Part shown: positions 10,849-61,787 of the stretch, piece after piece
Position numbering within the stretch: position 1 is the first letter of the stretch
How the letters are laid out: each line of letters starts with the position of its first letter
NCBI GenBank assembly: GCA_033812795.1
Contig: JAPXSY010000008.1
Span: 12,496-76,495 of the forward strand
DNA length: 64,000 nt
Reading direction: 5' to 3'
DNA from: Kiritimatiellia bacterium
Lineage (GTDB): Bacteria; Verrucomicrobiota; Kiritimatiellia; RFP12; UBA1067
Position numbers and translations under genes: made by a program
The notes under the pieces: generated by a model
What the model saw: only the letters and a program-made list of their open reading frames with translations
Databases searched by the model: none
What the model was told of the DNA's origin: nothing

Positions 10849-12837
10849 CTACTTGATATACATGACGTCGGCCGTACCGTAATGCTCGAACGCGCCGATG
10901 TCGGGAGCGTCCGCGCCGCCCGTGTAGCGCGGGTAACGTCGGCCGAATCTGACCGCGACACCGTAGTCTGCGACCTTTTCGATCATATAGGTGCCCGCAC
11001 CCGCATCGCACGCCGTCCAGTCAGCCGAACCGTCCTGGGTCTTCATCCAGTCGAGGACGAGCCCCTTCCCCCGGAGCGGCGACGCCCCGCGGAGCGTCAG
11101 GTTCGTCTCAGCGAGATTCCGGAACCCCGGCTCGCCGACGATCGTTCCCGCGAGGTTGCCGTTGAGGATGTTGCCGTCCCCGTCCTTCGGGAGCGTCGTC
11201 GCGACCTGATCGTAGCAGTTCGAGACATGCTCCGGCTTGTCGGTCGCGAAGGCCGGCGGGAGGCCGCCGTTCTTGTAACCGTGGAAAAGCGTGTTGCGGA
11301 CGACGACATTCGTCTCGCGCTTACTCCCCGCTCCGATGGCGTAGTATTCCGTGTCCGAGGCGACAAAGGTGCAGTTGTCGATCTCCGGCCCGGTGGCGGT
11401 GTAAGACGAATAGAACGGGCACGACCCCGTGTTCCCGACGAAGACGCAGTTGCGGATGTGCGCGCGGTAGGTTGGAAGAGGCGAACCGTCGAACTGAAGG
11501 ACCGCCTTGCCGTCCGTCACCGTGTGATTGACGAACCAGCAGCTTTCGAACACGAACGGGGTCGAACCGCCGCGCTGGACACGCGCGGCCTTCCCCTCGC
11601 CCCACTTTCCCGTCGCATTCGCCTCGAAGACGCAGTTCGAGAACCAGCCCGCCGAACCGCCCGTGAGCCATCCTCCTCCGCCGCCGCCGGAGGTGTTCCG
11701 GTGGAAGACGCACCCCGTCGCCGCAGGCCCCCCCGTGCCGGCGCCGCCCGATCCGACGGCTTCGTTGTCAATGATCAACGAGTCGCGCAGACCGCCCGAG
11801 GGATAGTTGATGTGGAAGACTCCGCCGGCATCGCCGTACGAATAGTTGTTCGAAACGGTCGATGTGCAGAAAAGTCCGGCGCCCTCGATCGCCACGCCGC
11901 CGCCGGAGGCGTTGCCGCTCGTGTTCGTCACGCATTTTTGGCATGTGTTCAGGTAAACGAGCGAATTGCTGACGATTCCACCGGTTCCCACGTAGAGCCC
12001 CCCGCCATAGCAGCGGGAGCTGTCATCCGTCGGCCGGACCCAGTTGTGGTGGACGCGGCAATTGTCGACGATGCCCGCGTCGCTCACATACAGGCCGCCG
12101 CCCACGAGTGCTCCCGTACCGCCGCCGACCGACATTGTCTCGGTCGAACAGTTCCGCACCTCGCAACGATAAGCGCGCGATGGCGTATCGGTGCCCCAGG
12201 CTTTGCCACCGATGAAAAGTCCGGCGCCGGCGCCCGTGACCTTCTGCTTCCTATCGTTGAACATCCAGCAGTTCTCGATCAGTGTGTCGAGGACGAGCGA
12301 GCTGCCGTTCGCGTAAACGCCCGCACCGCCGAACGCGGTCATCTCGGCGACGGCTGTGCCCGTGAGGTAGTCGGTACGCGTATCGAAGTGGCAGCCGGTC
12401 ACGACGCAGTTCGAGACAACGGCCGAGCTGCCGTTCACATGGATCCCGCCGCCGCGGTACCACTTGCGGGAATCGACCAGATAGGAGAGCCCGTTCGTCA
12501 CCGTGAGGTTGCAGGCGAGCGTATCGGTGCCGCCCACATAGAGGATATTGGTCATGCCGTTGCCCGTGAGGACCGTGTCGCGCGGATTCTCCGTCGAGCC
12601 CCTCAGCGTCAGCGAGCGCGTGAGCCTGATCGGCCCGAGGCCGTCGGCCGAGACATCGTAGTGCGTCGGGGACGCCTGCAGGACGATGGTCGAGCCATCC
12701 GGCACGTTCACCGTATCGGCGATCGCCGCGCGCAGATCGGTGACCGACGCCACGTTTATTTCGACCGCCGAAGCGGCGAAGGCGAGCAATCCGCAGCCGA
12801 GCGCCGGAAGAACACGAATCACGTTTGTCTCTTTCAT
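10849..12837 (-). CDS. secreted Pmp-repeat parallel beta-helix protein; C-terminal 'PDIGAFE' tail
   Basis: The ORF has an internal start at MKETNVIRVLPALGCGLLAFAASAVE (signal peptide) with an AGGAG RBS 7 nt upstream. It has GGG[IV]...N repeat periodicity throughout. It is paralogous to 4270..6975, 20623..22704 and 22718..24646. Confidence 0.55.
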   Translation of the reverse strand: MKETNVIRVLPALGCGLLAFAASAVEINVASVTDLRAAIADTVNVPDGSTIVLQASPTHYDVSADGLGPIRLTRSLTLRGSTENPRDTVLTGNGMTNILYVGGTDTLACNLTVTNGLSYLVDSRKWYRGGGIHVNGSSAVVSNCVVTGCHFDTRTDYLTGTAVAEMTAFGGAGVYANGSSLVLDTLIENCWMFNDRKQKVTGAGAGLFIGGKAWGTDTPSRAYRCEVRNCSTETMSVGGGTGALVGGGLYVSDAGIVDNCRVHHNWVRPTDDSSRCYGGGLYVGTGGIVSNSLVYLNTCQKCVTNTSGNASGGGVAIEGAGLFCTSTVSNNYSYGDAGGVFHINYPSGGLRDSLIIDNEAVGSGGAGTGGPAATGCVFHRNTSGGGGGGWLTGGSAGWFSNCVFEANATGKWGEGKAARVQRGGSTPFVFESCWFVNHTVTDGKAVLQFDGSPLPTYRAHIRNCVFVGNTGSCPFYSSYTATGPEIDNCTFVASDTEYYAIGAGSKRETNVVVRNTLFHGYKNGGLPPAFATDKPEHVSNCYDQVATTLPKDGDGNILNGNLAGTIVGEPGFRNLAETNLTLRGASPLRGKGLVLDWMKTQDGSADWTACDAGAGTYMIEKVADYGVAVRFGRRYPRYTGGADAPDIGAFEHYGTADVMYIK

Positions 12838-26838: not shown

Positions 26839-27002
26839 CATGCATTGACGGGAATATACAGCCAGCAATCAATAAAACCCAAAACAACGCTTTCAGACAG
26901 GATTACAGGATTCATTATGACTGGAATAAAACGGGCACATCATGTAAATCATGTAGTCATGTCCGAGTTTTTTTAGCAACACAGTGTACGAGGGGTATGG
27001 AC

Positions 27003-51776: not shown

Positions 51777-52372
51777 AGGACCACAAAACCTTCGACGCGC
51801 ATCGCCGTTCCCAGATCAACGGTAACTTCAGTACCACCGTCGACATCCTCGGAAGGGAACGGGTGGGGGCATGGGAATTTCGCCCCGTGTCCCTCCCACA
51901 CCATCGAACATGCGGTTTTCCGCGTCCCATGAATGACGCCATTCCCCGAGGCACGTCATGTTGCCGTCGGCATCATAGGTGGGGAGAGTTTGGACAGGAT
52001 TAACAGGATTTACAGGATTGGAGATCAGGGTGTATTGGTTGAGGCTGTTGGCGGTGTAGGTGTTGGTGGCGGCGTAGATGCAGAGGGCGGCGACGAGAAT
52101 TAGGAAAACCGCCCGGTCGACGCCAGACAGGGCGCGGAGGATGCGCCGAAGGCGGGCAGGGATGCCCGCGTTCGGGACTTTTCACCTCTGGTTTCAAAGT
52201 CATCCTTTGGTTTTCGCCCGGTGCCCGGGCAGCCGGCTTAACATCATCTGAGTTCCAGGCGCGCGCCGTCCGCGGCGATCGCTACGTATGCGGCGCGTTT
52301 CATTTTTCGTTCCCTTCCCCGGTTTTCCGGGAACTTCGCAACCGTTTTTTTAGCCCCGCCGATGATCGATAA

Positions 52373-58234: not shown

Positions 58235-58263
58235 TTGACATCCGCCCCGCTTTTTGCGATATT
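58235..58263 (+). promoter_or_regulatory. candidate sigma70-type promoter for tRNA-Tyr (-35 TTGACA, 17-nt spacer, -10 GATATT)
   Basis: Consensus -35 at 58235-58240, a 17-nt spacer, and GATATT at 58258-58263. This is ~19 nt upstream of the mature tRNA 5' end. Confidence 0.5.
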
Positions 58264-58281: not shown

Positions 58282-58367
58282 GGTAGGGTACCGAAGTGGC
58301 CAAACGGGGCAGACTGTAAATCTGCTGGCGGACGCCTTCCTTGGTTCGAATCCAAGCCCTACCACCA
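58282..58367 (+). tRNA. tRNA-Tyr (anticodon GTA), long variable arm, encoded CCA
   Basis: The 7-bp acceptor stem GGTAGGG pairs with CCCTACC. The anticodon loop is CTGTAAA. A long variable arm and a T-arm GGTTCGAATCC are present. Discriminator A is followed by CCA. Confidence 0.85.
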
Positions 58368-58373
58368 TTTTGA

Positions 58374-58400
58374 AACCTTGGCGTTTGCCGAGGTTTTTCA
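58374..58400 (+). terminator. Rho-independent terminator after tRNA-Tyr
   Basis: Hairpin CCTTGGC-GTTT-GCCGAGG (7 bp including one G·U pair) followed by TTTTTCATTTTC. Confidence 0.5.
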
Positions 58401-58825
58401 TTTTCTCGGGCTGAACTCCTCCTTTTTGCCGCCCCCATCCCCCCGCTTCCCGTCTCCCGTCCCTTTCTACCCTCTCATTGCGTTCAGCCCAATAAGCATT
58501 GACTTTTGTTGAGAACCCCGCCGCACCTGTTTGGCGCAGGACGCGGCGGTGCGTCCGACGCTCTTTTTGAACTCTTAGTCCCGGCACTTTGTCGGTTGCA
58601 CTTCGTCGCAAGCGCAATCGACTGAGTTTTGGAGACCGGTGCGTATGCGGGACTAAGGCGTCCGCGGACGGTTCGGGGAACCGTCCCTACCAGCGGGCGG
58701 GGACACCCGCTTCTCCCGTCAGACCTTATGTCGCCCCGCGACCCGCGACGAGCGACCTGCGGTGTCGGAAACGCGGGTGTCCCTGTCGATCGTCGCGGGT
58801 CGAATGTCGCGGGTCGCGGGGCGAC

Positions 58826-58870
58826 GATCCCGATCCCGATACCGATACCGATAGCGATCCCGACCCCGAT
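58826..58870. repeat. hexanucleotide microsatellite (CCGATN)x7
   Basis: gatcccgatcccgataccgataccgatagcgatcccgaccccgat. Confidence 0.8.
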
Positions 58871-58876
58871 TTGGAT

Positions 58877-58914
58877 GAAACCCTGAAACCCTGAAACCCT
58901 GAAACCTTGAAACC
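58877..58914. repeat. octanucleotide tandem repeat (GAAACCCT)x3, then GAAACCTT, then GAAACC
   Basis: gaaaccctgaaaccctgaaaccctgaaaccttgaaacc, read directly from the sequence. Confidence 0.8.
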
Positions 58915-58948
58915 AAAGAGAGTTGAAGGTTCAACTGCTCTTTTTAGG
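58908..58948. terminator. probable bidirectional intrinsic terminator between convergent transcription units
   Basis: AAAGAGAGTTGAA-GG-TTCAACTGCTCTTT gives a ~12-bp stem with one bulge, flanked by TTTTTA on plus and a T-rich run on minus. It lies between the tRNA-side transcript and the minus-strand GH16 gene. Confidence 0.4.
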
Positions 58949-59139
58949 TTCAGCCCCCTGATCGCAATAACCCGCCTCCCCCTCTTTCCCTCCCTCCTAA
59001 AACCAACGTGGAGCCTGCAACCCATTTAGAATCACACAAGGACACAAAGGGGTTCCCATGACAATCTATTCCTCTTCGTGTCTTTGCGCGAGAAACAACT
59101 TGTTTTCATCTGCCTCATTTTAGCGCCTCTTCGAGGGAC

Positions 59140-60021
59140 TCATTTGCTGATCGGCACCCATCTGCGAAACCAGTCGACTTTTGCCGTCGCCGGCAATGTC
59201 CTGGCATCAAGTTCAGACACTTTTGCACCCGACCAGTCGTTGACTTCGGTGTCGAGGACGACGTGCAATGGACGCCGAAATCCGCCTTGGGCAAAGCTCC
59301 CCGTGGGCATACGGGCGCTTTCCACATTGTCCACATACCACACAAGTTCGTCTTTCGTCCAAAGGAGCCCGTAAACGTGATAATCGGCACTAGGGCAGAA
59401 CGCCAGCTCGCGCATGACGCCGAGCGGCACGTTCAGGTTATTACAGATGCCCTCATAATACGGCGTCAGATAATGATGAGTGTAATGTGACGTAACATAC
59501 GACTGGTTTTTGTCGCCTGGCTGGTGCTTGCCGAGAATTTCACAGATGTCGATCTCCTCCGACACATCGCCTGGCGAGTACTTTCTGTTCAAATCATCAC
59601 TTAGCGGGTCATAAAGCCAGAATGCATTTCGTATCGCGGCTGGCGTTGCCTTGATGCGCGCTTCAAAATAGCCGTATATCACTTTCTTTCGGCTTTTCAC
59701 AAGTGCGCACGTATACCCCTGCATGCCATCCATCCGGGCTTCATACGGGATCTCTGAATCCGGCACTTTATCGGTCGTCAACAAAAGGCATCCTTCCCGC
59801 TGCGAAACATTCCGAGCCAACGTCCGATAGACACCCGGCCGACCCGGCCAATGGGGCGCATAATCCCACCATTTCGTCTTGTCGAGCGAATCCGCGTCAA
59901 ACTCATCGCTTACGCTTGTATCCAATTCCCATTTCCCGGGCAACGGGCAGCGAAGATCTGCCGCATGAACCCCGGACAACGCGTACCAACCCACCGTTGC
60001 GATCAACATGTATTTCGTCAT
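59140..60021 (-). CDS. GH16 glycoside hydrolase (stand-alone paralog of the N-terminal domain of 39449..41041)
   Basis: 293 aa with signal peptide MTKYMLIATVGWYALSGVHA. 'GDVSEEIDICEILG' is the ExDxxE catalytic motif. Many blocks are identical with 39449..41041 (VKSRKK.IYGYFEARIK, NAFWLYDP, DYHVYGLLWT). AGGAGG RBS. Confidence 0.7.
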   Translation of the reverse strand: MTKYMLIATVGWYALSGVHAADLRCPLPGKWELDTSVSDEFDADSLDKTKWWDYAPHWPGRPGVYRTLARNVSQREGCLLLTTDKVPDSEIPYEARMDGMQGYTCALVKSRKKVIYGYFEARIKATPAAIRNAFWLYDPLSDDLNRKYSPGDVSEEIDICEILGKHQPGDKNQSYVTSHYTHHYLTPYYEGICNNLNVPLGVMRELAFCPSADYHVYGLLWTKDELVWYVDNVESARMPTGSFAQGGFRRPLHVVLDTEVNDWSGAKVSELDARTLPATAKVDWFRRWVPISK

Positions 60022-60326
60022 TTGCCTGTACCTCCTGTTCTCTCACCTTTGCATGCGTAGACACTCCTTCTTGAGAAGAAGTTTCTGAGCCCGCTCGACC
60101 TTGGCGCGGACAATCGGCGTGGGTAAATATGGTATCACAATCTTCAGAAGCAAACAGGATCGATTACGAAACAAATTCAGGAAAAACGAATTTTTTACCA
60201 CATAGAAAAAAGGTTTTCATTTTCTCGACCTCAACGCCTGAATCGCTTTTTCAAATTCCGCCCCACATGTGTAAATTGAAAACACCCGGTTTTACATTCC
60301 GTTACGGCTTTGCTACGCTCCCGGGC

Positions 60327-61787
60327 ATGTGTTCCCGGAGTTTCGTCCTCTTCTGCTTCCTGTTCGGAGGCCCCGTATGCGCGATGTCCGCCACGGAACC
60401 CCCGATCCGCATCGTCTTCCCGGCTGAAGGCGCGCGACTGGCATACACGGACCGCGTGTTTGTGATCGGCGCGGTGCGGCCTGCCGACGTGCCGCTGACG
60501 CTCGATGAACGCCCGATCACACCGCACCGCACCGGCGGATTCCTGCACATGGCTCCGGTCTCCCCCGGCACCAACACCCTGATCTTCAACGCGGGAGGGA
60601 CCGTGATCCGTCACACCTTCCGAATCGATCCGCCGCCCCAGAGTTGGGATGGCTGTTCCCTACGCGCGCAGGCTCCACTCCAACCGCTGGGGCTCTGTAC
60701 CGGCGAAACGGTCCGGCTCGCCTGCCTCGCGCCAGCGGACCGCACGGTCTTCGCCGCGGTGGGCGAACGGACCCTCGCACTCGTACCGCAACCCGGCCAC
60801 GCCACGCTTTACGCGGCCAAGCTCGCGTTTGACGTGCCGGTCGCCGACGTGCCGGTGACCTTTTTCGCCACCGGGTTGTTGGACGCCGCAGCAGCCCCGC
60901 TCACCGCACGCGCCGACTGGCCGGCCCTACGCACAACCGGCCCCCTCTTCGCAATGCGCGCGCGTAGCGAACCGGGCGGCGGCGAGACCGTGGCCTTTTT
61001 GCCTCCTGATCTGACCGTGCGGGGCGCCGGGTTCGTTGGCGCACACACCCGTTTCTGGCTGGCCGGCGAACGCCGGTTCATGGAGTCGCGTCATCTCACT
61101 TCCCTCGCGCCGGAACATCCCCTGCCGCCCTGCGACCTCCCGATTCCCGATCTCACGGCCGGATTCACCTTGAACCCGCCCGTGGGCCGCGCGCCAGACT
61201 CCATTTTGATTGTGCTGGACCCCGGACACGGCGGCGCTTCGACCGGCGCGGTAGGCCCTACCGGGCTGACAGAAAAAGAGGCCAATCTGATTCAGGCGCA
61301 CCGGGTGGCCGCCACGCTCCGCAAGGCCGGATTCCGCGTGTTGCTGACGCGTGAGGATGACAAGGATTTAGACCTGTATGCGCGTGTGCGGCTGGCCTAT
61401 GAGCGAAAGGCTGACGCCTTCATCTCGATCCATTATAACTCCTGCGGACCTGCGGGCAACCCCTCCGAAAGCCGACACATCGCCACCTACGCCTGGAATG
61501 CGATTGGCCTCCGTCTGGCCCGGGCCCTCCACCCGCATCTGGCTGCGGCGTCCCCTGCGGCTGACGGTGGTGTGCGCACCGCCAGCTTCGCGGTTTGCCG
61601 CAATCCCGTCGTCCCCGCCTGCCTGCTGGAACTCGATTTCATCACCTGCCCCCTCGGCGAGGAGTCGCTTCAACAACCCGATCAACGCGAACGCGTGGCC
61701 CACGCGGTTCTGGCCGGTCTGCGCGACTGGCTCACGCCTTCGCCACGTACCGAATCGGCCAATAACGCAACACCAAACAAGGAGTGA
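60327..61787 (+). CDS. N-acetylmuramoyl-L-alanine amidase (Amidase_3/AmiC-like) with N-terminal accessory domains
   Basis: The C-terminal domain has 'LIVLDPGHGG...GLTEKEANL...GFRVLLTREDD...ADAFISIHYNS', matching Amidase_3. The start is uncertain: ATG 60327 (MCSRSFVLFCFLFGGPVCA signal) versus upstream ATGs. Confidence 0.6.
   Translation: MCSRSFVLFCFLFGGPVCAMSATEPPIRIVFPAEGARLAYTDRVFVIGAVRPADVPLTLDERPITPHRTGGFLHMAPVSPGTNTLIFNAGGTVIRHTFRIDPPPQSWDGCSLRAQAPLQPLGLCTGETVRLACLAPADRTVFAAVGERTLALVPQPGHATLYAAKLAFDVPVADVPVTFFATGLLDAAAAPLTARADWPALRTTGPLFAMRARSEPGGGETVAFLPPDLTVRGAGFVGAHTRFWLAGERRFMESRHLTSLAPEHPLPPCDLPIPDLTAGFTLNPPVGRAPDSILIVLDPGHGGASTGAVGPTGLTEKEANLIQAHRVAATLRKAGFRVLLTREDDKDLDLYARVRLAYERKADAFISIHYNSCGPAGNPSESRHIATYAWNAIGLRLARALHPHLAAASPAADGGVRTASFAVCRNPVVPACLLELDFITCPLGEESLQQPDQRERVAHAVLAGLRDWLTPSPRTESANNATPNKE

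Follow-up and report, generated by a model that had tools for sequence, protein, structure and literature searches.

The stretch of DNA analysed here (hereafter the window: 64,000 nt, positions 12,496 to 76,495 of contig JAPXSY010000008.1) comes from an uncultured Kiritimatiellia bacterium of anaerobic digesters, as judged from record titles and samples, and carries a gene for tRNA-Tyr that converges on a GH16 gene across a spacer of 772 bp (from the tRNA end at 58367 to the GH16 end at 59140). A metagenomic contig, L111, overlaps the window by 13,872 nt without a single difference and extends 7.7 kb beyond the window end, such that the genome sequence examined amounts to 72 kb. An earlier note on this DNA had put the gap at ~770 bp and had described it as unusually dense in repeats and potential secondary structure, suggesting a structured small RNA (sRNA), a 3'-untranslated element of GH16 or a slippage-prone, phase-variable tract. 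We find that all of the structural features on its list fall within one unit of 403 bp, and that this unit is one copy of a repeated, non-coding, modular DNA that is specific to this Kiritimatiellia species. The features of the spacer and its immediate surroundings are collected in Table 1.

Table 1. Features between the tRNA-Tyr promoter and the GH16 gene (window positions; a dividing stroke separates the two arms of an inverted repeat; TRF, Tandem Repeats Finder; REP, repetitive extragenic palindrome; ORF, open reading frame)
Feature	Position	Strand	Basis
tRNA-Tyr promoter, TTGACA-17-GATATT, near-consensus	58235-58263	+	promoter scan
tRNA-Tyr (GTA)	58282-58367	+	ARAGORN; Rfam tRNA, 57 bits
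Predicted intrinsic terminator of tRNA-Tyr: 11-bp stem, then U-rich tail	58372-58406 (hairpin 58372-58397)	+	terminator scan; fold -16 kcal/mol, z -5.2
C-rich, G-poor tract, 56% C, C/G ratio 6.6	58417-58475	+	composition
Second terminator-like hairpin, then UCUUUUUG; straddles left end of repeated element	58533-58568	+	fold -18.9 kcal/mol, z -2.8
Repeated element, 403 bp	58546-58948	+	limits by homology to locus-2 copies (BLAST and nhmmer against L110 and L111; 11-copy alignment)
Left part of element, including 10-bp inverted repeat 58574-58583 / 58648-58657	58546-58656	+	
Low-complexity ORF, 101 codons	58589-58894		
Small hairpin, 9-bp stem, GGACGGTTC-GGG-GAACCGTCC	58666-58686		
25-bp present/absent unit, REP-like	58666-58690	-	indel in alignments
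Second inverted repeat, 11 nt at 58700-58710 / 58773-58783; 17 nt at 88% when extended	58700-58716 / 58767-58783		
Long inverted repeat, perfect 20 nt at 58730-58749 / 58806-58825; 32 nt at 88% when extended	58730-58761 / 58794-58825		
Left 7-mer array, CCCGCGA, 3.9 copies	58735-58761		TRF
Right 7-mer array, GTCGCGG, 4.1 copies	58792-58820		TRF
Hexamer array (CGATNC), 7.7 copies	58825-58870	+	TRF
Conserved linker CCGATTTGGATGAAACC between hexamer and octamer arrays	58866-58882	+	in nearly every module, both loci
Octamer array (TGAAACCN), 4.9 copies	58876-58914	+	TRF
T module: hairpin AGAGAGTTGAA-GG-TTCAACTGCTCT (58917-58941), then T5; AAA before hairpin	58917-58948	both possible	
Right-flank C-rich, G-poor tract, C/G ~3.6; outside repeated element; strain-invariant	58949-58998	+	composition, alignments
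Convergent GH16 gene	59140-60021	-	ORF list

The modules of the element follow a set order: a (CGATNC)n array, the linker, a (TGAAACCN)n array and a hairpin with T5 (here the ‘T hairpin’), to which the full version adds a left arm and a palindromic core of 7-mers. The long inverted repeat has the two opposed 7-mer tandem arrays for its arms, and its outer 20 bp are perfect only in what we term A-type alleles, which carry an extra heptamer. On the minus strand, the 25-bp present/absent unit reads GTAG followed by a perfect palindrome of 21 nt (GGACGGTTC-CCC-GAACCGTCC). The second and the long inverted repeats (58700-58783 and 58730-58825) interleave, and so have the pseudoknot-compatible topology that had been proposed for them; indeed the repeats, hairpins, arrays and ORF listed in the earlier note are all present, at coordinates that differ from ours by one base at most (the left arm of the 20-nt repeat being 1 nt off). 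The density of repeats and structure also exceeds chance: folding of 58500-58950 gives z scores of -4.9 for the plus strand and -5.1 for the minus strand, with -7.4 for 58690-58830 taken separately; the repeat arm has two matches at up to three mismatches where 0.19 would be expected; and the arrays never appear in dinucleotide shuffles. The near-equal scores on the two strands mean that this symmetry is a property of the DNA, and does not serve to identify a transcribed strand. In the predicted centroid fold the arrays are unpaired.

That the element is repeated emerged from a scan of metagenomes with an invariant anchor, which returned only three contigs; L110, which was among them, revealed a second locus (locus 2, the copy in the tRNA-Tyr/GH16 spacer being locus 1), where a second copy of 58546-58948, 91.6% identical and inverted, lies upstream of an FGGY kinase gene. 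Copies occupy this position in L110/L116 and in L111/L112. In the strain of the window, locus 2 sits ~7.5 kb from locus 1, just past the window end, and takes the form of a 1.75-kb spacer in L111, between divergent genes: FGGY on one side and an XcyI-type restriction-modification pair on the other. It contains an inverted full copy (L111 16289-16652, 85% identical to the window element) together with at least five partial modules, in which a hexamer array is followed by the linker and an octamer array, with the terminator hairpin or a short junction closing the module; some of these modules make up a tandem repeat of higher order, with a unit of ~128 bp. The hairpin of 58917-58948 is found three times at locus 2 with zero changes, and a decayed copy of it is seen at L110 1289-1347. 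In many samples a contig has one end in locus 2 and the other in locus 1, as is to be expected if assemblers break at a repeat, and this accounts for the many contig ends that fall inside the region. The earlier note had named a match to a known family of repetitive extragenic elements as something that would refute its proposal, and in substance this is what we find, the region being one copy of a family that goes unnamed in the libraries searched.

Locus 2 has features of its own. The restriction-modification side (L111 17337-19207, which would be ~67.5-69.3 kb in window numbering, beyond the window end) encodes an N4/N6 methyltransferase and the XcyI-type restriction enzyme, in a segment of low GC content (0.53) directly beside the arrays of locus 2. 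Strain L116 has a Met_synt_B12-like gene on this side instead, which makes locus 2 a strain-level breakpoint. A further motif, ACAGGAT(T/G)A, is repeated in tandem, two or three times over, in a number of the genome's intergenic spacers (window 26897-26911 and 51995-52020; L111 15917-15962, 16266-16280 and 16724-16738). At locus 2 it always adjoins the terminator hairpin, and once makes a hairpin with a 19-bp stem. It is possibly a binding motif, or else another short repeat dispersed in this genome.

The loci that we retrieved from digester metagenomes hold 28 full-length matches to the element, which reduce to 11 distinct sequences (eight alleles at locus 1 and three at locus 2). Across the seven full-length locus-1 alleles used to compute diversity, the core of the element (58657-58915) has a nucleotide diversity (π) of 0.047, with indels in 67 of 286 alignment columns, as against 0.006 and one of 638 columns for the flanks; the core is thus some eight times as diverse, and holds nearly all of the indels. 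These indels are unit-sized: hexamer arrays differ in length by 6 or 12 nt, octamer arrays by 7-8 nt and the left palindrome arm by a single heptamer. The 25-bp palindrome unit (58666-58690) is additionally present or absent as a discrete block according to the copy. Hexamer copy number ranges from 7.7 to 9.7 across alleles; octamers number ~4 to 7 in the full copies, and the modules of locus 2 have as many as 8. Hypervariability of this kind is, on the pattern of the aligned alleles, the signature of slipped-strand mispairing; both the proposal of a slippage-prone tract and the length polymorphism sought by comparing hexamer and octamer copy numbers across metagenomic sequences are therefore borne out, with the heptamers also differing between strains.

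Slippage is not the only process that has left its mark. The left part (58546-58656) is near-invariant among strains, and yet locus-specific: over its 110 columns the common B-type allele of locus 1 differs from the window allele by a single substitution, and from locus 2 by eight substitutions and one indel. Over the next 180 columns the relationship is reversed, with 11 substitutions and three indels separating that same allele from the window allele, and only two substitutions and one indel separating it from locus 2. The two loci also have the 25-bp indel in common, as well as several point variants. This incongruence between left part and core, along with the shared variants, indicates non-allelic gene conversion between the two loci, with a tract of ~170 bp or more. 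The clustered ‘substitutions’ and mosaic alleles are likewise accounted for by that inter-copy conversion.

Against this background of change the T hairpin stands out: it has π of 0 and no indel columns, and is free of differences over 33 nt in all 11 full copies, where the rest of the two full copies is 15% divergent. Its predicted folding energy is -14.5 kcal/mol on the plus strand and -15.6 kcal/mol on the minus strand, and, being a stable hairpin (58917-58941) followed by a U-run (U5), it has the form of a predicted intrinsic terminator. The U-tract at locus 1 faces read-through from the strong tRNA-Tyr promoter, and in strain L116 the T hairpins of locus 2 face a co-oriented upstream gene. 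The hairpin, we suggest, probably terminates or insulates transcription.

The sequence on either side of the element has a distinctive composition. The tract at 58417-58475 is rut-like by composition, and might act on read-through transcripts from the tRNA gene; the C/G ratio within the arrays is 2.0, compared to 6.6 and 3.6 for the two flanking tracts. As an observation on their own account, the pyrimidine-rich, G-poor plus strands of 58417-58475 and 58949-58998 resemble Rho-utilisation sites, and position 58432, in the first of these tracts, is a C5/C6 length variant among strains.

Nothing in the evidence obtained shows either a regulatory RNA or a genetic switch. The suggestion of a structured sRNA, or of a known RNA family, is not supported by an Rfam scan, in which only the tRNA reaches threshold at locus 1 and locus 2, the next-best matches being eukaryotic microRNA hairpin models (32 bits, where the gathering score is 86) that score alike on both strands; nor does a consensus scan find a sigma-70-like promoter upstream of any module, on the relevant strand, at either locus. 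Covariation is likewise not significant: across the 11 copies 94% of cells pair, but only one of 75 pairs covaries, as well as which 48 of 500 shuffles do, and that pair (58705/58778) occurs as A-T (A-U), G-C or A-C, with three instances of A-C. Most of the 75 pairs never vary, helix 1 (the left hairpin) is degraded in the locus-2 copies, and the 20-nt repeat is specific to certain alleles. The idea of a 3'-untranslated element of GH16 fares no better, as a transcript coming from GH16 would meet the hairpin before it reached the arrays. Phase variation in the sense of a contingency locus calls for repeats within an ORF or in or near promoter elements, and at locus 1 we find the copy-number polymorphism without that location: the arrays lie between convergent 3' ends, outside promoters and any ORF that is kept among alleles. 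The arrays of locus 2 lie upstream of the methyltransferase gene and stop ~55 bp before its -35 box.

Several other candidates were considered and set aside. A coding gene is rejected on the grounds that indels of 25, 5-7 and 8 nt throw every frame out of register, and that the ORFs differ from allele to allele with no frame preserved; the variable positions of the hexamer array would be the first and second codon positions if it were translated. A six-frame polyprotein of the element, meant to pick up spurious ORFs annotated in other copies, found no match in a protein database, in a search of poor sensitivity (8,000 candidates had short words in common with the query, which is itself rich in low-complexity words). 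A replication origin is rejected, since the GC skew tracks gene orientation, a dnaA context is lacking and the strings that resemble DnaA boxes are weak ones. A minus-strand G-quadruplex is rejected too, the G3 runs not being the conserved part of the octamer.

Outside this species no counterpart of the element came to light. BLAST and nhmmer searches (the latter with the 11-copy alignment) of 120 loci and the window recovered only the two loci of this species, barring one weak match in L051, and no match was found among plasmids, phages or viral contigs. The L051 match, in another Kiritimatiellia species, is a (CGATNN)n tract followed by GATTTCGAAGAG at 1267-1311, just upstream of a gene for a kinase-like protein of 454 aa; its resemblance to the hexamer-linker module (nhmmer E = 1.5e-4) could be due to chance or to distant kinship. 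The gene order Nth-S21-tRNA-Tyr is kept in six other Kiritimatiellia species (L021, L024, L025, L026, L027 and L033, from the first 40 of 80 Nth-anchored loci, scanned for tRNAs), as is the arrangement of tRNA-Tyr with a terminator of its own, but the spacer element does not follow tRNA-Tyr in any of these six: the sequence diverges right after the tRNA terminator, and differs in each. The tRNA-Tyr gene and its terminator hairpin are, in that respect, a synteny breakpoint. Neither is the element found beside the homologues of GH16 (69-83% identity), which lie in unrelated GH20 operons, and a literature search found no work on repeats in this group.

Set against known repeat systems, the element shares traits with several of them. 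A REP unit is defined as a palindrome of 20-40 bp headed by GTAG or CGTC (PMC3733652), and the minus strand of 58666-58690 conforms to this, whereas the dispersal in many copies that is typical of REP units is not seen within 72 kb: no other copy of the GTAG palindrome occurs in the window at up to three mismatches, and there is no perfect-hairpin family in the 72 kb. Like the bacterial interspersed mosaic elements (BIMEs) of Enterobacteria and Pseudomonas, it is extragenic and multi-copy, and a mosaic in which palindromic units are variously combined with linker motifs; BIMEs are also frequently placed between convergent genes, and are tied to termination and to protection of mRNA 3' ends. 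It differs from them in the lack of sequence similarity, of a dispersed high-copy palindrome in 72 kb and of any RAYT (REP-associated tyrosine transposase) gene seen there, and in consisting mostly of micro- and minisatellite arrays, which BIMEs lack. With the BOX elements of Streptococcus pneumoniae (boxA-boxB(n)-boxC) it shares a modular, intergenic and non-coding nature, a variable number of internal modules, a predicted stable structure and differences in copy number between strains; BOX elements, however, exceed 100 copies in a genome and have end modules whose conservation points to mobility, where two loci are known here, and are built from 45-nt boxes, not from variable units of 6 to 8 nt ending in a predicted intrinsic terminator.

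The element also resembles variable-number tandem repeat (VNTR) loci. Intergenic loci of this type, as used in multiple-locus VNTR analysis (MLVA; for example the mycobacterial interspersed repetitive units, MIRU), are tandem arrays with conserved flanks whose copy number differs between close strains via slippage or unequal recombination, and the element likewise has head-to-tail arrays (TRF), unit-sized strain indels and the ~128-bp higher-order repeat of locus 2. What sets it apart is that four types of array (6-, 7- and 8-mers, and the ~128-bp unit) are found in one element along with a large palindrome and a conserved terminator, and that the whole unit is duplicated, with gene conversion between loci. 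The contingency loci of Neisseria, Haemophilus and Campylobacter also have short tandem repeats that vary in length between strains by slipped-strand mispairing, but theirs lie within an ORF or between promoter elements and switch a gene, while those of locus 1 lie between two 3' ends, with no frame kept.

Taking these findings as a whole, the explanation that we consider moderately probable is that of a species-specific modular extragenic repeat, whose hairpin terminates or insulates transcription and whose arrays are by-products of slippage. Termination or insulation by the T hairpin would, on this account, be the element's only selected function. At locus 1 the hairpin, backed by two upstream hairpins and the C-rich, G-poor tracts, would stop read-through from the tRNA gene and thereby shield the convergent GH16 gene from antisense transcription; it may also end the GH16 mRNA, since the AAA before the hairpin would allow action on GH16 transcripts. 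The arrays and the long inverted repeat would be unstable by-products, and neither structured RNA nor switch, with slipped-strand mispairing serving to diversify the element and inter-copy gene conversion to homogenise or shuffle its copies. A number of points count against this explanation. The role in termination is deduced from sequence, and a simple terminator scan missed the T hairpin, on account of its 2-nt loop and bulged stem. In the window's strain, terminators have no obvious job between the divergent genes of locus 2; the conservation of the linker and of the array cores CGAT and GAAACC is not explained by slippage alone; the invariance of the hairpin could come from recent homogenisation by gene conversion, and not from selection; and the size of the family is judged from 72 kb of the genome only.

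A wholly neutral history would be one alternative, in which a local duplication is decaying, the arrays are satellite-like, the hairpin is not a working terminator and its invariance reflects recent conversion. The lack of conservation outside this species, the failure of structures to be kept between paralogues, the conversion seen between copies, the good terminator that the tRNA already has for itself and the decayed hairpin copy in L110 all speak for this; we nonetheless hold it to be unlikely, as it must accommodate a hairpin with 0 differences in 33 nt in two full copies that are 15% divergent elsewhere, and a U-tract oriented to incoming transcription both at locus 1 and, in L116, at locus 2. 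A family of multi-copy sRNA genes, its modules transcribed on the plus strand and ending at the T hairpin, with the unstructured C-rich tracts as multivalent sites for an RNA-binding protein or as anti-Shine-Dalgarno CCCU motifs, would account for a predicted Rho-independent terminator that is perfectly conserved at the 3' end of every intact module, for arrays that are predicted to be unpaired and for the likeness of the tandem locus-2 modules to tandem sRNA gene clusters. Such a family is rather improbable, when no module is preceded by a sigma-70-like promoter (although the neighbouring tRNA promoter fits the consensus well), Rfam match and significant covariation are both wanting, a terminator-like hairpin stands at the element's own 5' end, and copy number and structure vary freely between strains.

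A mobile-element remnant, whether a miniature inverted-repeat transposable element (MITE), an IS200/IS605-type palindrome-associated element or a REP/RAYT unit, inserted beside tRNA-Tyr and upstream of FGGY, is a very improbable origin. Two dispersed full copies with sharp homology boundaries, hairpins near both ends, a 25-bp indel that is exactly GTAG plus a palindrome, as in the REP definition (PMC3733652), and two loci that are both synteny breakpoints, one of them beside a restriction-modification island, are what such a remnant might leave; but the ends of the element (GCGGTGCG... and ...TTTTTAGG) do not form inverted repeats, its two full copies have unrelated flanks with no target-site duplication in common, no further copy of either the element or the GTAG palindrome is present in 72 kb, no transposase, RAYT or integrase gene was seen there, and there is no match to plasmids, phages or viral contigs. 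Short tandem boxes that bind protein have their precedents, such as the met boxes (8 bp), the heptads that omega binds (7 bp) and the ParG sites, which have a period of 8 bp. Arrays of 6-, 7- and 8-bp boxes might similarly be bound cooperatively here (by a protein of ribbon-helix-helix type or similar, in the manner of an operator or centromere), or tune the FGGY and methyltransferase promoters of locus 2 in a phase-variable way, and would then explain the cores CGAT, GAAACC and CCGCGAC that are conserved in otherwise variable units, the direct and inverted runs of 7-mers, the closeness of the locus-2 arrays to the methyltransferase -35 box and the polymorphic copy number. Of the readings considered we give this one the least credence: no candidate binding protein or partition gene lies nearby, and locus 1, between its convergent 3' ends, has no promoter to control.

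It is also possible to speculate more freely, and to see the modules as functional multivalent platforms: either a small family of terminator-capped RNAs, whose unstructured tracts with periods of 6 and 8 nt titrate a ring-shaped or otherwise multimeric RNA-binding protein, or DNA arrays to which a small repressor or partition protein binds cooperatively, with array length tuning the dose, and with slippage and inter-copy conversion providing diversity. A related reading would have the two inverted 400-bp copies invert the 7.5-kb GH16-amidase-GH127-FGGY cassette that lies between them. We judge these ideas decidedly improbable; inversion of the 7.5-kb segment was itself looked for and rejected, every bridging contig being in one orientation.

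Two genes of that intervening segment merit a remark. The nearest homologues of GH16 are embedded in GH20-GH16 operons of other species, and its solitary position here, between two repeat copies, suggests relocation. The amidase gene (window 60129-61787) is called with 467, 486, 506 or 552 codons depending on the strain; the 552-codon ORF of the window is probably over-extended, with the true start likely to be near the signal-peptide-like MCSRSFVLFCFLF.

Finally, what had appeared to be a candidate non-coding RNA or phase switch is now a documented, species-private modular repeat in the little-studied Kiritimatiellia, and one that belongs with known kinds of sequence, namely repetitive extragenic elements and variable tandem-repeat loci. 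It illustrates that micro- and minisatellites, a palindrome and a terminator can move together and be reshuffled by gene conversion. If the arrays were indeed binding platforms, the element would be a tunable, hypermutable regulatory device, though nothing yet requires that reading. At a more practical level, the element explains the two fixed points at which this organism's assemblies are interrupted in many metagenomes and, with at least eight alleles at one locus, it provides a natural marker for strain typing.

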